A stretch of DNA of 64,000 bases, taken from a virus. Taxonomy: Duplodnaviria > Caudoviricetes. Positions 31,493-63,545 of this stretch are shown here, in pieces. The stretch is from IMG/VR virus record IMGVR_UViG_3300023048_000002, positions 64,001 through 128,000 of that record; one strand, written 5' to 3'. The notes under the pieces are model-generated. The model was given only the letters and a program-made list of their open reading frames with translations. It made no database searches and was not told the origin of the DNA. The position numbers were made by a program, and so were the translations under genes. Each line of letters opens with the position of its first letter. Within the stretch, counting starts at the first letter, position 1.

Positions 31493-34444
31493 TTATCCTA
31501 TTACAAAGTGACCACCAAGACCAACGTCCTGATAGTTCGCCATTGCTGGGTCGTTCAATTCTTCCATCAATGCCTGTCTTTCTGTGTCAGCCTGAGAAGA
31601 CAATTCTTGTGAGTTAAGTGTTGTACTACCATTTGGTCCCGGTAGAGTCTGATACTTACCTCTAACGTGTGATAGCATCATCTTGGCTTCAGCTAATGCA
31701 TATTTCTTAATCCATAGTGCAGATTCACGGCTAGTGAACAAGTCCTGTTCTGTCTTCTCAATGGTCACATCAAGAAGCATTCTTTCATGCATTGTAATTC
31801 TGCTAAACAATCTCAACTCACGGCTCTCTTCTACCCATTGGTGCATGATACGAGTAGCAAATAACTGTTCCAATTCCTTCATGTAAGAAGACATTAAGTG
31901 ATAGCTCAACATGTCAAATGTGCCAACAGTGTACAACTGCTGAAGTGCAGCTACACCAAACAAACCGTTGCCTGCAAGTCCAGCGGTGATCCAACCCGCT
32001 TTCATTCTGTGAATAACTCTTACATCTGAAATCTTGTTGAAACCAACACATTTATTGGAAAGAATATATGTCTGCTGATTTGGCTTAGCATCTAGGAAGA
32101 ACATATTTCTAGATGAACCATAACCCGAATATTTTCTAAACATTAGTAGAGCATTATCGATAGCTTCATTAATTTGTTCTTTTGTCAATTCAACCGTGAC
32201 GCTGACACTACCTAGCATATTTCTAATAGAATTATGTAAGGCTCTTCTTTCATCTGGTGAACCATCAGTACCAACGCCAAGCTGTTTGTACATTGGGCCT
32301 GCATCGATGCCATTGTTGCCTTCTACAGGATCAGCATAAAGAACTGACTGTGTTAGTTTTGCAAAGATACCATCTGCGTCTGGAACAACATAAATGCTAT
32401 GCCCACATCCATTAGCATTTGATTCGAAATGTAGGTATGGTGTGTTGTTCCAGCGTGGGTCTTTGCTTACCTGATATTTAAAACTTACAGTAGCAATAGG
32501 CTGAGAAACAATCCAGTTCGTGCCTGTCCACTGGAATAATTCATCGTTAACGGTGTCATACCATAGAGTACCGATTTGTGGCATCAATGGGTGTAGAGAG
32601 AATGGTGTTACAACCCAAGCTGTACCGTTCCATTCTTTCAACTGATTGTTCACAGTATCGAACCACATGTAGCCTACGTATACGTCGAATGGATCAGTAT
32701 CGGAAATGATTGGATGAATGATATCCCAATCCAAACCATCCCATGTGTAATATGTCTTATTTGTTTCATTATACCAAACCGTACCAACTGGTGGGCGTGT
32801 TGGATCATAAGGGAATGAAATGAATTCTCTTTCTACACAGCTATTCTTTAGGATGTATTTCAAAGTACCATCTTTAGGATTATACCAAACAACACATGGT
32901 GGTAGATTTGGTGGCTGTGAAGGATCAGCAGTTTGCTGTAGAAAATTAGCTACAATCTTCCATTCAGTGTTCACGATATCCCATACAAACAATGAATCAA
33001 CAGAAGGAGACTGATTCCACCATAGGTCATTACTACTTCTATTGATTGGATCAGTTGGGTACATAGTGTACTCAACTTCAACCCAAGCAGTGTTTAAATC
33101 ATCTCTCTTATAGAATTTCTGTGTTTCTGGATTCAACCAGTATGTGCCTGTTGCTGGGTAATTAACAGTACCGTCAGCATTAGGTTCATCATAGCGAACA
33201 TTAGTCGTTAGATTCCATTGGCCTGCTGAGAATTTATACATCTTGCCATCAGTTTCATTTAACCAGAAATCACCCACACCTAGAGTGTTAGGGTCTTTCT
33301 TTGAAATGATAGCTAAAATATCGTCAAACTTTTCAGCATCAGCATTCCACTTAGCAAGCGTACCATTAACAGTATCATACCAGTAGGTATTGCAATCAAG
33401 AATTGGAGCAAGAGAAGGGTTACGAGTCTGTATGTATAAGCATAGCTTAATCCAATGATCACCATCCCATTCGTAAACTTCAGAGCCAGTAAACCATAAT
33501 TGTCCACAAATAGGCTTAGTTGGATCATTTGCTAGCTTGACGAAAGGCTGTGGACTCCAACCACCGGTCTCATACATGTACATGATGTCATGCAATGTAT
33601 CGTACCAGTATGTTCCCTGTGGGTGTGTTGTAGGGTCAACACCAATGAATGTAACAGGCTTTGCAATATTCTTGAAACCATCATAGAAATAAAGCTTTTG
33701 ATTTACTAGGTCAACATAGTACTGGTTTGCATTCGGTGGTAGCGGTGCTGCATAAGCACCACTGATTAGTTTAAACTCTTTATTGATAGCATCAACTAAA
33801 TCACTGTAGGTCTGCGCATCCATGCCTTTAATCTTCAGGAAGTAATCCTTTGAATCAATCTGCATATGTAATGTATATGTTGTTGAAGGATCAAGTCCTG
33901 TCATGGTGTTTAATGTGATGCTTGCGATTGAATCCTGATTTGGGAACAGTAGGATGTTCTGGTAAGCATTAAAGTATTCTGTATCCTTTTCCTCAGAGCC
34001 AGTGCTGATAGAATATGCGTGGACGCCTTCACGGTGATATCTGCCTACATTATCAATAGCGTAAGCAGAGATGTAATAGAACTTGTTTGGATCGACATCC
34101 GTAACAGTTAAAGATGTAGTCTTCTTATCATGATAAAAAGTACCGACAACAAGGGCTGTACCCAATTTCGATCCAGTATGCATATCTGGATCGACAGTTG
34201 GATCATCTTCATAAATGTTGGCATTCTTTGGTGATGTTGTAATGTAGTCTGCTGGTTTAGATGAAGCAGTAATCAAGATACCATCGTATGCCTGATTATC
34301 AACCGAACAACCATTTGATGGCGATGGTATGTTCCATGATACAGTACCAGTACCATCGCCATTGCGAACGAACTTTACAGTGATTTCCTCACCTTCTTTT
34401 ACGATCTGATTTGGTGTGTCTGCGTAGTTACCGTAAATTGCCAT
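31493..34444 (-). CDS. neck protein (gp13-like) with long Trp-rich repeat extension
   Basis: C-terminal LGSVSVTVELTKEQINEAID...WIKKYALAEAK...RGKYQTLPGPNG; about 9 W(Y/F)(D/N)...W(D/N)G repeats. Confidence 0.75.
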   Translation of the reverse strand: MAIYGNYADTPNQIVKEGEEITVKFVRNGDGTGTVSWNIPSPSNGCSVDNQAYDGILITASSKPADYITTSPKNANIYEDDPTVDPDMHTGSKLGTALVVGTFYHDKKTTSLTVTDVDPNKFYYISAYAIDNVGRYHREGVHAYSISTGSEEKDTEYFNAYQNILLFPNQDSIASITLNTMTGLDPSTTYTLHMQIDSKDYFLKIKGMDAQTYSDLVDAINKEFKLISGAYAAPLPPNANQYYVDLVNQKLYFYDGFKNIAKPVTFIGVDPTTHPQGTYWYDTLHDIMYMYETGGWSPQPFVKLANDPTKPICGQLWFTGSEVYEWDGDHWIKLCLYIQTRNPSLAPILDCNTYWYDTVNGTLAKWNADAEKFDDILAIISKKDPNTLGVGDFWLNETDGKMYKFSAGQWNLTTNVRYDEPNADGTVNYPATGTYWLNPETQKFYKRDDLNTAWVEVEYTMYPTDPINRSSNDLWWNQSPSVDSLFVWDIVNTEWKIVANFLQQTADPSQPPNLPPCVVWYNPKDGTLKYILKNSCVEREFISFPYDPTRPPVGTVWYNETNKTYYTWDGLDWDIIHPIISDTDPFDVYVGYMWFDTVNNQLKEWNGTAWVVTPFSLHPLMPQIGTLWYDTVNDELFQWTGTNWIVSQPIATVSFKYQVSKDPRWNNTPYLHFESNANGCGHSIYVVPDADGIFAKLTQSVLYADPVEGNNGIDAGPMYKQLGVGTDGSPDERRALHNSIRNMLGSVSVTVELTKEQINEAIDNALLMFRKYSGYGSSRNMFFLDAKPNQQTYILSNKCVGFNKISDVRVIHRMKAGWITAGLAGNGLFGVAALQQLYTVGTFDMLSYHLMSSYMKELEQLFATRIMHQWVEESRELRLFSRITMHERMLLDVTIEKTEQDLFTSRESALWIKKYALAEAKMMLSHVRGKYQTLPGPNGSTTLNSQELSSQADTERQALMEELNDPAMANYQDVGLGGHFVIG

Positions 34445-50280: not shown

Positions 50281-50370
50281 TGGAGCCGCCCACAGGATTC
50301 GAACCTGCGATGTAGGTATTACCATTCTTGCTTACAAGGCAAGCCCTTTCGACCACTCAGGCAAGACGGC
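50281..50370 (-). tRNA. tRNA-Thr(TGT) with long variable arm
   Basis: CTTGC CTTGTAA GCAAG; V region AATGGTAATACCTACATC. Confidence 0.8.
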
Positions 50371-50379
50371 TCATTAAAT

Positions 50380-50462
50380 TGGTGCTGGACACAGGATTCG
50401 AACCTGCAACGTGGAATACCTGATTACAAAACAGGTGCCTTCAACCATTCAGCCAATCCAGC
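50380..50462 (-). tRNA. tRNA-Thr(TGT), expanded variable region
   Basis: CCTGT TTTGTAA TCAGG; 11-nt V region. Confidence 0.8.
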
Positions 50463-58380: not shown

Positions 58381-58390
58381 ATATTTTTAA

Positions 58391-58471
58391 TGCCTCGTGA
58401 TGGGATCGAACCATCGACCTTTTCCTTATCTATCCTAGTAAGGAACACTACTTCCTCTGAGTTAACGAGAC
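58391..58471 (-). ncRNA. tRNA-like RNA with expanded anticodon arm, no encoded CCA
   Basis: Acceptor and T arm intact; TTCCTTA-CTAGGATAGA-TAAGGAA. Confidence 0.65.
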
Positions 58472-58477
58472 ATATTT

Positions 58478-62180: not shown

Positions 62181-62272
62181 TGGTGGTTCCTGTAGGATTC
62201 GGACCTACATCGTTCGGTTATCTGCCGATCATGTCTTATAAGGACACCGCACTACCATTGTGCTAAGGAACC
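62181..62272 (-). tRNA. tRNA-Ile(TAT) with extra GAT anticodon-like arm
   Basis: GTGTC CTTATAA GACAT then TCGG CAGATAA CCGA. Confidence 0.8.
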
Positions 62273-62277
62273 GTAAT

Positions 62278-62354
62278 TGGGAGTCGGTAGTAGGTAACGA
62301 ACCTACATCTGCAACTACTACCGCTGCATGTTCTACAATTGAACTACACCTATC
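62278..62354 (-). ncRNA. degenerate tRNA-like RNA
   Basis: D and T arms and CCA present; mismatched acceptor; loop GGTAGTA. Confidence 0.55.
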
Positions 62355-62527: not shown

Positions 62528-62619
62528 TGGTGGATGTGACAGGATTTTCGCCTGTACTACTGCGGCAGGTTGCGTCATCGGCTTCCTGACGTAGTGTCTT
62601 AAACTTAACTTACACACCC
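62528..62619 (-). ncRNA. tRNA-like RNA with Ala acceptor identity and no anticodon loop
   Basis: GGGTGTG/CACATCC-A-CCA (G3-U70); ~35 nt irregular helix. Confidence 0.65.
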
Positions 62620-62635
62620 ATAACTATTTGTGGAA

Positions 62636-62768
62636 TGGTTGGAATGGTTGGAATTGAACCAACATCACTGGCCTATAAGATCGAATCGTTGTCATTTGAC
62701 CGCCTAAGCGTCTACCTAAGTAGAAACGATCTTTTGCCTAGCGCTCTACCTATTGAGCTACTATTCCA
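62636..62768 (-). ncRNA. tRNA scaffold carrying a four-way junction in place of the anticodon loop
   Basis: D arm GCTC AATAGGTA GAGC, T arm GTTGG TTCAATT CCAAC, ACCA end. Confidence 0.75.
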
Positions 62769-63094: not shown

Positions 63095-63179
63095 TGGTGG
63101 GACGCGCAGGAGTCGAACCTGCCTAGAACTTTCGTTCGCTGATTAAGAGTCAGATGCACAACCGCTATGCCAGCGTCCC
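63095..63179 (-). tRNA. tRNA-Lys(CTT) with long variable arm
   Basis: CTCTTAA loop; V arm GAAC GAAA GTTC. Confidence 0.82.
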
Positions 63180-63468: not shown

Positions 63469-63545
63469 TGGTGGTTCCTATAGGTTTCGCACCTATGACC
63501 TCACGGTTATCAGCCATGCGCTCTAACTATCTGAGCTAAGGAACC
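63469..63545 (-). tRNA. tRNA-Ile(GAT)
   Basis: CATGG CTGATAA CCGTG. Confidence 0.88.

Follow-up and report, generated by a model that had tools for sequence, protein, structure and literature searches.

The stretch of DNA analysed here (the window; 64,000 nucleotides, nt) corresponds to bases 64001-128000 of a 171-kb IMG/VR virus record (IMGVR_UViG_3300023048_000002), which represents a jumbo phage at ~49% completeness and with 39.4% guanine plus cytosine. The window carries at 62181-62272, on the minus strand, a gene for a tRNA-Ile with anticodon UAU in which a second hairpin, resembling an anticodon arm and displaying GAU, stands between the anticodon arm and the T arm. ARAGORN calls the gene as tRNA-Ile(tat), 92 nt long with the anticodon at position 33; it is one of 32 tRNAs that the program finds, together with one tmRNA, in the whole record, 26 of which lie at 40.9-64 kb of the window, all on the minus strand. 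The gene scores 59.4 bits with the Rfam tRNA model (RF00005; gathering score 29), and its minimum free energy fold combines a cloverleaf with the extra hairpin (-28.7 kcal/mol, z -2.7, with 1 of 200 shuffles folding as well). The cloverleaf has the parts expected of a tRNA, that is, a 7-base-pair (bp) acceptor stem, a 5-bp T stem, a D arm and a 7-nt anticodon loop, and this loop (CUUAUAA) presents UAU with U33 and A37, which, together with discriminator A73, is what an AUA-reading tRNA-Ile should show. The 62181-62272 gene is a genuine, structurally sound elongator-type tRNA with anticodon UAU. The original prediction, made from the sequence alone, had described a tRNA-Ile(UAU) with a second anticodon-arm-like hairpin at 62214-62228; ARAGORN, Rfam, the fold and a family of 36 members (below) bear this description out, and the sequence confirms the coordinates of the arm to the base (Table 1).

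Table 1. Parts of the tRNA-Ile(UAU) gene and its companion tRNA-Ile(GAU) in the window. The full RNA, 62272 to 62181, reads GGUUCCU-UA-GCAC-AAUGGUA-GUGC-G-GUGUC-CUUAUAA-GACAU-GA-UCGG-CAGAUAA-CCGA-ACGAU-GUAGG-UCCGAAU-CCUAC-AGGAACC-A-CCA. R1 is the covariance model of the family.
Feature	Position	Strand	Evidence or remark
Whole tRNA-Ile(UAU) gene, 92 nt	62181-62272	-	ARAGORN; Rfam 59.4 bits; family model R1 101.2 bits; minimum free energy fold
Encoded CCA	62181-62183	-	Sequence
Discriminator A	62184	-	Sequence
Acceptor 5' strand GGUUCCU	62266-62272	-	Pairs with 62185-62191 (AGGAACC); helix 98.5% paired, 7/7 pairs covary in the family
D arm GCAC-AAUGGUA-GUGC	62249-62263	-	Ordinary class I type: 4-bp stem, 7-nt loop
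Anticodon arm GUGUC-CUUAUAA-GACAU	62231-62247	-	UAU at 62238-62240; helix covaries
Purine linker GA, 2 nt, between the two arms	62229-62230	-	
Extra arm UCGG-CAGAUAA-CCGA	62214-62228	-	7-nt loop 62218-62224; GAU 62220-62222
5-nt connector ACGAU	62209-62213	-	In place of the class I variable loop; G46- and U48-like positions
T arm GUAGG-UCCGAAU-CCUAC	62192-62208	-	Sequence; helix covaries
Companion tRNA-Ile(GAU), 77 nt, anticodon arm CAUGG-CUGAUAA-CCGUG	63469-63545	-	Same acceptor stem as Ile(UAU)

A family of two-arm tRNA-Ile(UAU) genes

The gene belongs to a family that was recovered by several routes. A sensitive blastn search with the 92-nt gene found in Lactobacillus phage Lpa804 (Herelleviridae) a 91-nt tRNA-Ile(tat) that had escaped annotation, with the arm UCAG-CAGAUUA-CUGA, and a pattern made from the D arm and the UAU loop alone (TAGCACAAYGGTAGTGC-N6-YTTATA) matched 20 loci in IMG/VR viral contigs, all 20 of which have a hairpin in a variable region of 20-24 nt. 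Further members are found in phages LpeD and ENFP1, Latilactobacillus sakei prophage TMW 1.1393 P1 and Aeromonas phage 1233; on plasmids, namely the conjugative Xanthomonas plasmid pXCV183 and four relatives plus a 132-kb plasmid of Limosilactobacillus reuteri; and in metagenomes and contigs binned to Acidobacteriota (dense tRNA arrays). In total, the family comprises 36 members, with 29 distinct arms and 12 distinct inner 3-bp stems. Its covariance model, R1, gives 101.2 bits to the window gene and 80-103 bits to members vs. at most 53 bits to ordinary tRNAs, and the same ceiling of 53 bits holds for every other tRNA of the window.

A megablast search of the phage collection for close relatives returned none, the sole match being that of a tRNA-Tyr to Xanthomonas phages, and an exact 29-mer spanning both arms had no match in viral contigs. 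The pattern CAGAT-N5-AACGATGTAGGT yielded 2 true members and 5 chance matches in non-tRNA DNA. By protein, the nearest cultured relatives are the Xanthomonas phages XacN1 and Xoo-sp13; a 983-aa protein of the window (31493-34444, minus strand) is 45-47% identical to their hypothetical proteins and, to the same degree, to hypothetical proteins of Stenotrophomonas phages CM1 and RAS14. XacN1 and Xoo-sp13 do not carry the family, their top R1 matches being ordinary Lys and Val tRNAs at 51-53 bits, and the distribution is therefore patchy, as expected of a mobile tRNA gene. A BLAST search with the LpeD tRNA against 401 genomes of the phylum to which the genome of locus L038, a Bacillota metagenome-assembled genome (MAG), belongs gave no match. 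Homologues of the adjoining small terminase come from Latilactobacillus, Leuconostoc and Lactococcus, none from L. plantarum, and the protein clusters of loci L012 and L016 match only 'Caudoviricetes sp.' and L. acetotolerans.

The public records of members (L042:1493-1583, L003:294-384, L041:199-290, L044:1498-1590 and L173:1499-1591) are mostly without tRNA annotation: in the Latilactobacillus phage a 'hypothetical protein' coding sequence (CDS) overlaps the member, and ENFP1 alone annotates it, as tRNA-Ile. Three members with unrelated D arms, found as by-catch (L078, L121 and L128), keep the loop CAGAUUA. Two of them, L121:1810-1901 and L128:51-142, are two-arm Ile(UAU) tRNAs with a 4-bp D stem and a tetraloop (GACU-UGGA-AGUC and GUGU-UGGU-ACAC) and a 3' connector of UUCUUGA or UUCUCGA, i.e., a divergent body around the same loop.

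Structure and conservation of the extra arm

Covariation was assessed by aligning 19 distinct members. In the extra (V) helix, pairing reaches 98.7% and both partners have changed in 3 of the 4 pairs, and the five-helix structure as a whole is 97% paired vs. 69% in shuffles (0 of 500 as high) and 37-43% when the partners are slid; all tRNA helices, including the acceptor, anticodon and T helices, covary, and A73 is invariant (19/19). The dimensions of the arm are also rather constant among the 30 parsed rows: the stem is 4 bp long in 25, the linker before the arm measures 2-5 nt (exactly 2 nt in 18), and the connector after it has 5 nt in 23 and ends in GAU in 24, giving an RNGAU type. At the base of the arm a purine faces a purine in 26 of 28 arms (by our own reading of the parsed arms), a flank that resembles the 26.44 hinge pair of ordinary tRNAs. 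The window gene, with UCGG-CAGAUAA-CCGA followed by ACGAU, shows what defines the family, that is, an extra 4-bp hairpin, a loop of the form NN-GA-Y-NN and an RNGAU connector of ~5 nt. Two other pairings were considered and rejected, a variable-stem pairing AUCG/CGAU in the window gene, which is not kept in relatives, and a pairing of loop GAUU with T-loop AAUC, for which inspection of the alignment revealed no covariation.

All loops have the form NN-GA-Y-NN, with the consensus C-A-G-A-U-W-A: CAGAUUA is counted 15 times, CAGAUAA 4 times and CGGACUG twice, and UAGAUGG, UAGAUCGA, CAGAUCG, CGGAUUA, CAGAUCA, CAGAUGG, UAGAUUG and CUGAUUA once each. When the loops of the 28 correctly parsed arms are numbered like an anticodon loop, the 32-equivalent is mostly C, the 33-equivalent is A in 24 (G in 3, U in 1), G34 and A35 are invariant, position 36 is U except for C in 2, and position 38 is A or G. 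That is, five of the seven positions (C32, G34, A35, U36 and A38) copy the anticodon loop of tRNA-Ile(GAU), with U33 replaced. The idea of a GAU loop in which A takes the place of U33, put forward from the one gene, now stands as a feature under selection (A in 24 of 28 arms, G-A invariant), and the covariance search in phage genomes that had been proposed along with it shows loop and stem to be conserved across the 36 members. Since the stem covaries and the loop sequence is kept, the loop should have a sequence-specific partner.

These data also bear on whether the arm is simply left over from an anticodon-arm duplication and neutral, or the gene a decaying pseudo-tRNA. Degenerate tRNA-like elements do adjoin the gene (at 62282-62353, 62531-62619 and 62636-62768), as such a reading would have it; against this, 36 members in unrelated phages and plasmids keep the helix by compensatory change and keep the loop, and the window gene reaches 101 bits with R1. 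The comparative data already contradict a relic, and we consider its chances negligible.

Relation to the phage's own tRNA-Ile(GAU)

The original prediction had also compared the extra arm with the anticodon arm of the phage's tRNA-Ile(GAU) (63469-63545). The reported one-base difference between the cores of the two arms is real, and so is the identity of the acceptors (GGUUCCU/AGGAACC-A). Further, the 3' half of the Ile(UAU) gene (positions 47-92, extra arm included) is colinear with the phage's tRNA-Ile(GAU) at 79% identity, and the segment from the extra arm to the 3' end resembles the 3' two-thirds of a class I tRNA-Ile(GAU). The colinear 3' part together with the class I-like 5-nt connector fits a duplicated or inserted anticodon arm. 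Hence, of the proposed origin, in which a new UAU arm was inserted and the old arm kept, the duplication or insertion is consistent with the data, whereas the alignment does not indicate which of the two arms is the older.

Other phages with both genes vary in this respect, acceptors and stems being alike in L032 and L039 and unlike in L013, L014 and L026. Judging from these comparisons, the likeness of the arm stem and acceptor to the phage's own tRNA-Ile(GAU) is local and not general, and the likeness of the loop is general. A rule by which the extra stem would track the anticodon stem of the own tRNA-Ile(GAU) was rejected, as it applies only to the window and L039 and fails in L013, L026 and L032. 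Finally, in the phage-like tRNA arrays of two other loci (L032:7668-7744 and L078:2433-2520), a tRNA-Ile(GAU) has the loop CCGAUAA, with C replacing the universal U33.

The extra arm is tied to UAU and to mobile elements

A metagenome sample that was selected on the D arm and admitted any base at position 34 shows how the arm is distributed among anticodons. The D arm of the Ile(UAU) gene is also found in short tRNAs with GAU, CAU and UAU anticodons, and the long arm is present in 8 of 33 UAU tRNAs vs. 0 of 84 GAU or CAU tRNAs (Fisher p = 2e-5). Seven of the 8 long-arm genes are in multi-tRNA loci vs. 10 of the 25 short-arm genes (p = 0.04), and the short-arm UAU tRNAs with the same D arm are mostly singletons in cellular-looking contigs (e.g., a Lloydbacteria MAG). 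Other class I tRNAs of the same arrays have extra hairpins as well (Lys CUU, Thr UGU and Gln UUG, with several more in L078); their loops are mostly of 3-5 nt, without anticodon-like sequence.

Long-armed tRNA-Lys(CUU) genes of 85-89 nt, with a hairpin in the variable arm, were noticed in the window (63095-63179, minus strand, arm GAAC-GAAA-GUUC) and recur in unrelated phage arrays (L169:1372-1460 in XacN1, L039:6980-7066 and L122:1203-1288); they may form a second family in which class I tRNAs have gained an arm. Likewise, tRNA-Thr(UGU) genes of 83-90 nt, found in the window (50281-50370 and 50380-50462, minus strand) and at L013:2608-2692, L022:1018-1102 and L078:2338-2424, combine a tRNA-Ser-like D arm with a short variable-arm hairpin and a discriminator that is mostly U; the 83-nt window copy has a U.U mismatch or a 9-nt anticodon loop.

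AUA decoding and amino acid identity

Bacterial cells handle AUA by lysidine (TilS) or by an adapted isoleucyl-tRNA synthetase (IleRS). No TilS (PF01171) gene was found in the 171-kb record, which at ~49% completeness does not establish its absence from the phage, nor was any class I aminoacyl-tRNA synthetase (PF00133) gene, IleRS included, detected in this same ~49% complete sequence. Among the Ile codons of the phage 11.4% are AUA, which amounts to 7.9 per 1000 codons (open reading frames of at least 120 aa), and the TilS-independent reading of AUA that had been predicted follows from the UAU anticodon.

What AUA stands for was assessed indirectly, in 24 conserved proteins aligned to those of XacN1 and Xoo-sp13, a small sample of 85 AUA positions. 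These positions face I in 32%, V in 18%, F in 9% and L in 8% of cases, compared to I 43, V 19 and L 14 for AUU, and the profile is also similar to that of AUC and unlike those of Leu, Ser or Tyr codons. Because AUA aligns like AUU, it behaves as an Ile codon, and an identity switch of the nev- or allo-tRNA type is unlikely; as judged from these alignments, there is no recoding of AUA in this phage. Such a conversion, in which LeuRS, SerRS or TyrRS (or ValRS, for variants displaying GAC) would charge the tRNA and AUA would be recoded, could draw on the class II length of the variable region (22 nt), on A73 with a possible A15-U48-type pair as in tRNA-Leu, and on the precedent of the leucylated nev-tRNAIle(UAU) (PMC3333845). 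The codon data speak against it, given I at 32%, V at 18%, L at only 8% and no Ser or Tyr signal, as do the class I D arm, which ordinary GAU and CAU tRNAs also have, the conserved 7-nt loop, the 5-nt 3' connector, and the 7/5 acceptor/T arrangement with A73 vs. 8/4 or 9/3 with G73 or U73 in allo-tRNAs. We regard identity conversion as very improbable.

The family was also compared with known systems. The closest in decoding are the TilS-independent tRNAIle(UAU) species ('tRNAIle3' of Mycoplasma mobile, Bifidobacterium and Neorickettsia; PMC3575796, PMC8450103), which share UAU without lysidine, A37, an Ile-type body and A73; tRNAIle3, however, is an ordinary class I tRNA with a short variable loop that needs a UAU-adapted IleRS (Arg865 in M. 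mobile), whereas the two-arm family has a GAU-displaying hairpin within a 22-nt variable region and resides on mobile elements. Class II tRNAs (Leu, Ser, Tyr, Sec) are similar in their variable-region stem-loop and size (~90 nt), and the window gene has a long arm in this sense (22 nt, 4-bp stem), but its architecture is not that of class II, with a class I D arm, a conserved 7-nt loop, 5 unpaired bases after the arm and an Ile anticodon. The allo-tRNA(UAU) species of Acidobacteria and others (Mukai et al., PMC5389517) resemble the family in combining a long variable arm with UAU, and some of our contigs are binned to Acidobacteriota. In allo-tRNAs the acceptor/T arrangement is 8/4 or 9/3, a tetraloop caps a long D stem, and position 73 is G or U (serine identity), in contrast to 7/5, a 4-bp D stem with a 7-nt loop and A73 in the window gene. 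Similarly, the nematode nev-tRNAIle(UAU) (PMC3333845, PMC4300185) has a UAU anticodon and a variable arm, but it is eukaryotic, leucine-charged and has a tRNA-Leu-like body, as opposed to the Ile-like body of the window gene and Leu at 8% of AUA positions. With its 7/5 branch, class I D arm and A73, the gene falls outside the nev- and allo-tRNA families.

A proposed GAU handle for IleRS and other possible readers of the arm

The poor acceptance of UAU by bacterial IleRS offers an explanation for the arm. With E. coli IleRS, tRNAIle2(UAU) reaches 1.1% of the kcat/Km measured for the LAU form, which is ~100-fold worse (PMC3575796), and IleRS reads the anticodon through base-specific pockets, G34 by ARD3 and A35 and U36 by ARD1 (PMC13752280). 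A mobile element cannot count on finding a UAU-adapted IleRS in its host, and would therefore carry the GAU determinant on the tRNA itself. More specifically, the extra loop, by imitating the anticodon loop of tRNA-Ile(GAU), would act as a portable identity element for host IleRS, and, with the U-turn base U33 that decoding needs replaced, it should not act as a decoding anticodon. Host IleRS would charge the tRNA through the GAU arm, which in the charging conformer would probably occupy the position of the anticodon arm on the D stem, and AUA would then be decoded by the UAU arm, without TilS. This reading agrees with where the arm is found, namely with UAU and on mobile elements, and, based on the comparative sequence data, we tentatively favor the extra arm as a portable GAU identity handle for host IleRS, giving it somewhat less than an even chance. 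It is possible, if more doubtful, that the molecule is in fact a two-headed tRNA, which would make it the first natural tRNA to divide aminoacylation identity and codon reading between two anticodon-type arms, probably via two alternative stackings of the five-way junction.

Several points weigh against a GAU handle. At the 37-equivalent position U predominates (19 of 30 parsed rows) and A37 is not kept; t6A37 is a strong determinant for bacterial-type IleRS (PMC9976931). Two distinct arms (L018 and L142, loop CGGACUG) display GAC, not GAU, and the anticodon cleft is out of reach for a 4-bp variable arm that does not replace the anticodon arm on the D stem. Short tRNA-Ile(UAU) genes also occur in some phage-like tRNA arrays (L074 and L086); the arm is thus common on mobile elements and not obligatory. 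In addition, the variable arm of a 92-nt tRNA-Glu(UUC) at L078:110-201 (minus strand) shares AGAUUAGCGC with the neighboring two-arm Ile(UAU) gene at L078:253-346, which is the only GAU-like arm outside Ile(UAU) in our data and probably reflects local recombination (the same contig also has long-armed Met, Asn, Trp, Thr and Ile(GAU) tRNAs). Finally, the L. plantarum tRNAIle2(UAU), or 'tRNAIle(UAU)-like RNA', is possibly of the same design; the L. plantarum phages Lpa804 and LpeD and the Latilactobacillus prophage carry members. If the design is indeed the same, it counts against charging through the arm that this L. plantarum RNA is reportedly not charged by its IleRS (work said to be that of Tomikawa et al. 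2018 and Uesugi et al. 2022).

Alternatively, the RNA might be a working, Ile-charged AUA decoder whose GAU-type loop is read by a partner other than IleRS, for instance, a U34 modification enzyme or phage factor, a device for AUA vs. AUG discrimination on a foreign ribosome, a tertiary contact of the five-way junction, or a factor that spares or marks the tRNA with respect to nucleases. Loop conservation and stem covariation show that there is some specific partner, not which one it is, and the loop departs from a true Ile loop at 33 (A) and 37 (mostly U), closes as C.A, C-G or U.G around a pentaloop R-G-A-Y-N, and exists in GAC variants. A fidelity device would be useful, as UAU tRNAs misread AUG on E. 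coli ribosomes (PMC3575796), and the extra arms on other phage tRNAs hint at a general use of variable-arm hairpins in arrays. On the other hand, no candidate for such a partner is known, and among proteins only IleRS is known to be specific for GAU, precisely the triplet displayed; tRNAs that have this D arm and a GAU or CAU anticodon lack the extra arm, which goes with UAU; and the extra-arm loops of other tRNAs are short and unconserved. On balance, we consider a reader other than IleRS rather unlikely, yet one to be taken seriously.

The nuclease decoy that the original prediction had raised found no evidence in its favor. Schlafen-type or other anticodon nucleases were set aside, given that the source paper names no specificity for tRNA-Ile(GAU) or for a variable arm. 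T-boxes are rare in Gammaproteobacteria; mimicry of a T-box (ileS leader) was rejected because the family also has members in elements of Gammaproteobacteria.

The RNA may also be uncharged and work outside translation, as a decoy, sponge or regulator that, for example, titrates IleRS or another tRNA-binding protein. In this context, the tRNAIle(UAU) of L. plantarum, which may share the design, is reportedly expressed, carries no anticodon modification and is not charged with Ile. All helices of the family covary, including the acceptor and T helices, A73 is invariant and CCA is often encoded, the UAU loop YUUAUAM is kept, the gene sits within arrays of ordinary tRNAs, and the phage uses AUA for 11.4% of its Ile codons, all of which argue for a role in translation. 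Conversely, the allo-tRNA(UAU) species presumably act mostly outside translation (PMC5389517). We find a non-translational role improbable.

Other unusual tRNA genes near the locus

The tRNA-like elements next to the gene, all on the minus strand, vary in how far they depart from a tRNA. The one directly upstream of Ile(UAU), at 62282-62353, scores 26.8 bits with Rfam (gathering score 29) and 28.6 bits with R1 and is not called by ARAGORN; its D and T arms are well formed, whereas the acceptor stem is weak and the anticodon region non-standard. The element at 62531-62619 (Rfam 25.6 bits, no ARAGORN call) has the acceptor GGGUGUG/CACAUCC-A-CCA and ~24 nt inserted in the anticodon loop region, giving a branched arm. 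At 62636-62768, a 133-nt element (R1 32.8 bits) has normal D and T arms, a ~60-nt anticodon-arm insert closed by the stem AAGAUCG/CGAUCUU, and a short 3'-end duplication, CCAUUCCAACCAUUCCA. Further away, ARAGORN reports at 58390-58472 (minus strand) an 83-nt 'tRNA-Val(tac)' with a poor cloverleaf and without 3' CCA context, adjoining two normal Val tRNAs, which is probably a degenerate or unusual tRNA. Phage tmRNA genes were seen at G000:C1:29494-29911, in this jumbo phage but outside the window (tag ANTNAFYGDYALAA), and at L007:6578-6966, in a 167-kb phage.

Implications

Full-text literature searches returned no description of a phage or other tRNA-Ile(UAU) with a variable or second anticodon-like arm, and a 2026 study of IleRS treats tRNAIle(UAU) only as a rare ordinary isoacceptor (PMC13752280). 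Family genes are often missed in annotation or overlaid by 'hypothetical protein' CDSs, and they occur on conjugative plasmids of Xanthomonas as well as in phages of lactic acid bacteria. The two-arm tRNA offers a simple and inexpensive experimental system, and its design could provide an orthogonal-identity scaffold when the genetic code is to be engineered at AUA.

The identity and the decoding of a tRNA normally share one anticodon, which for Ile creates the AUA problem, with UAU being poorly accepted by bacterial IleRS. A mobile tRNA that combines a UAU anticodon with a GAU-displaying arm suggests a third solution to this problem, placed on the RNA itself, besides lysidine and an adapted IleRS. 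If this is true, mobile elements would carry with them a host-independent and TilS-independent way of reading AUA.

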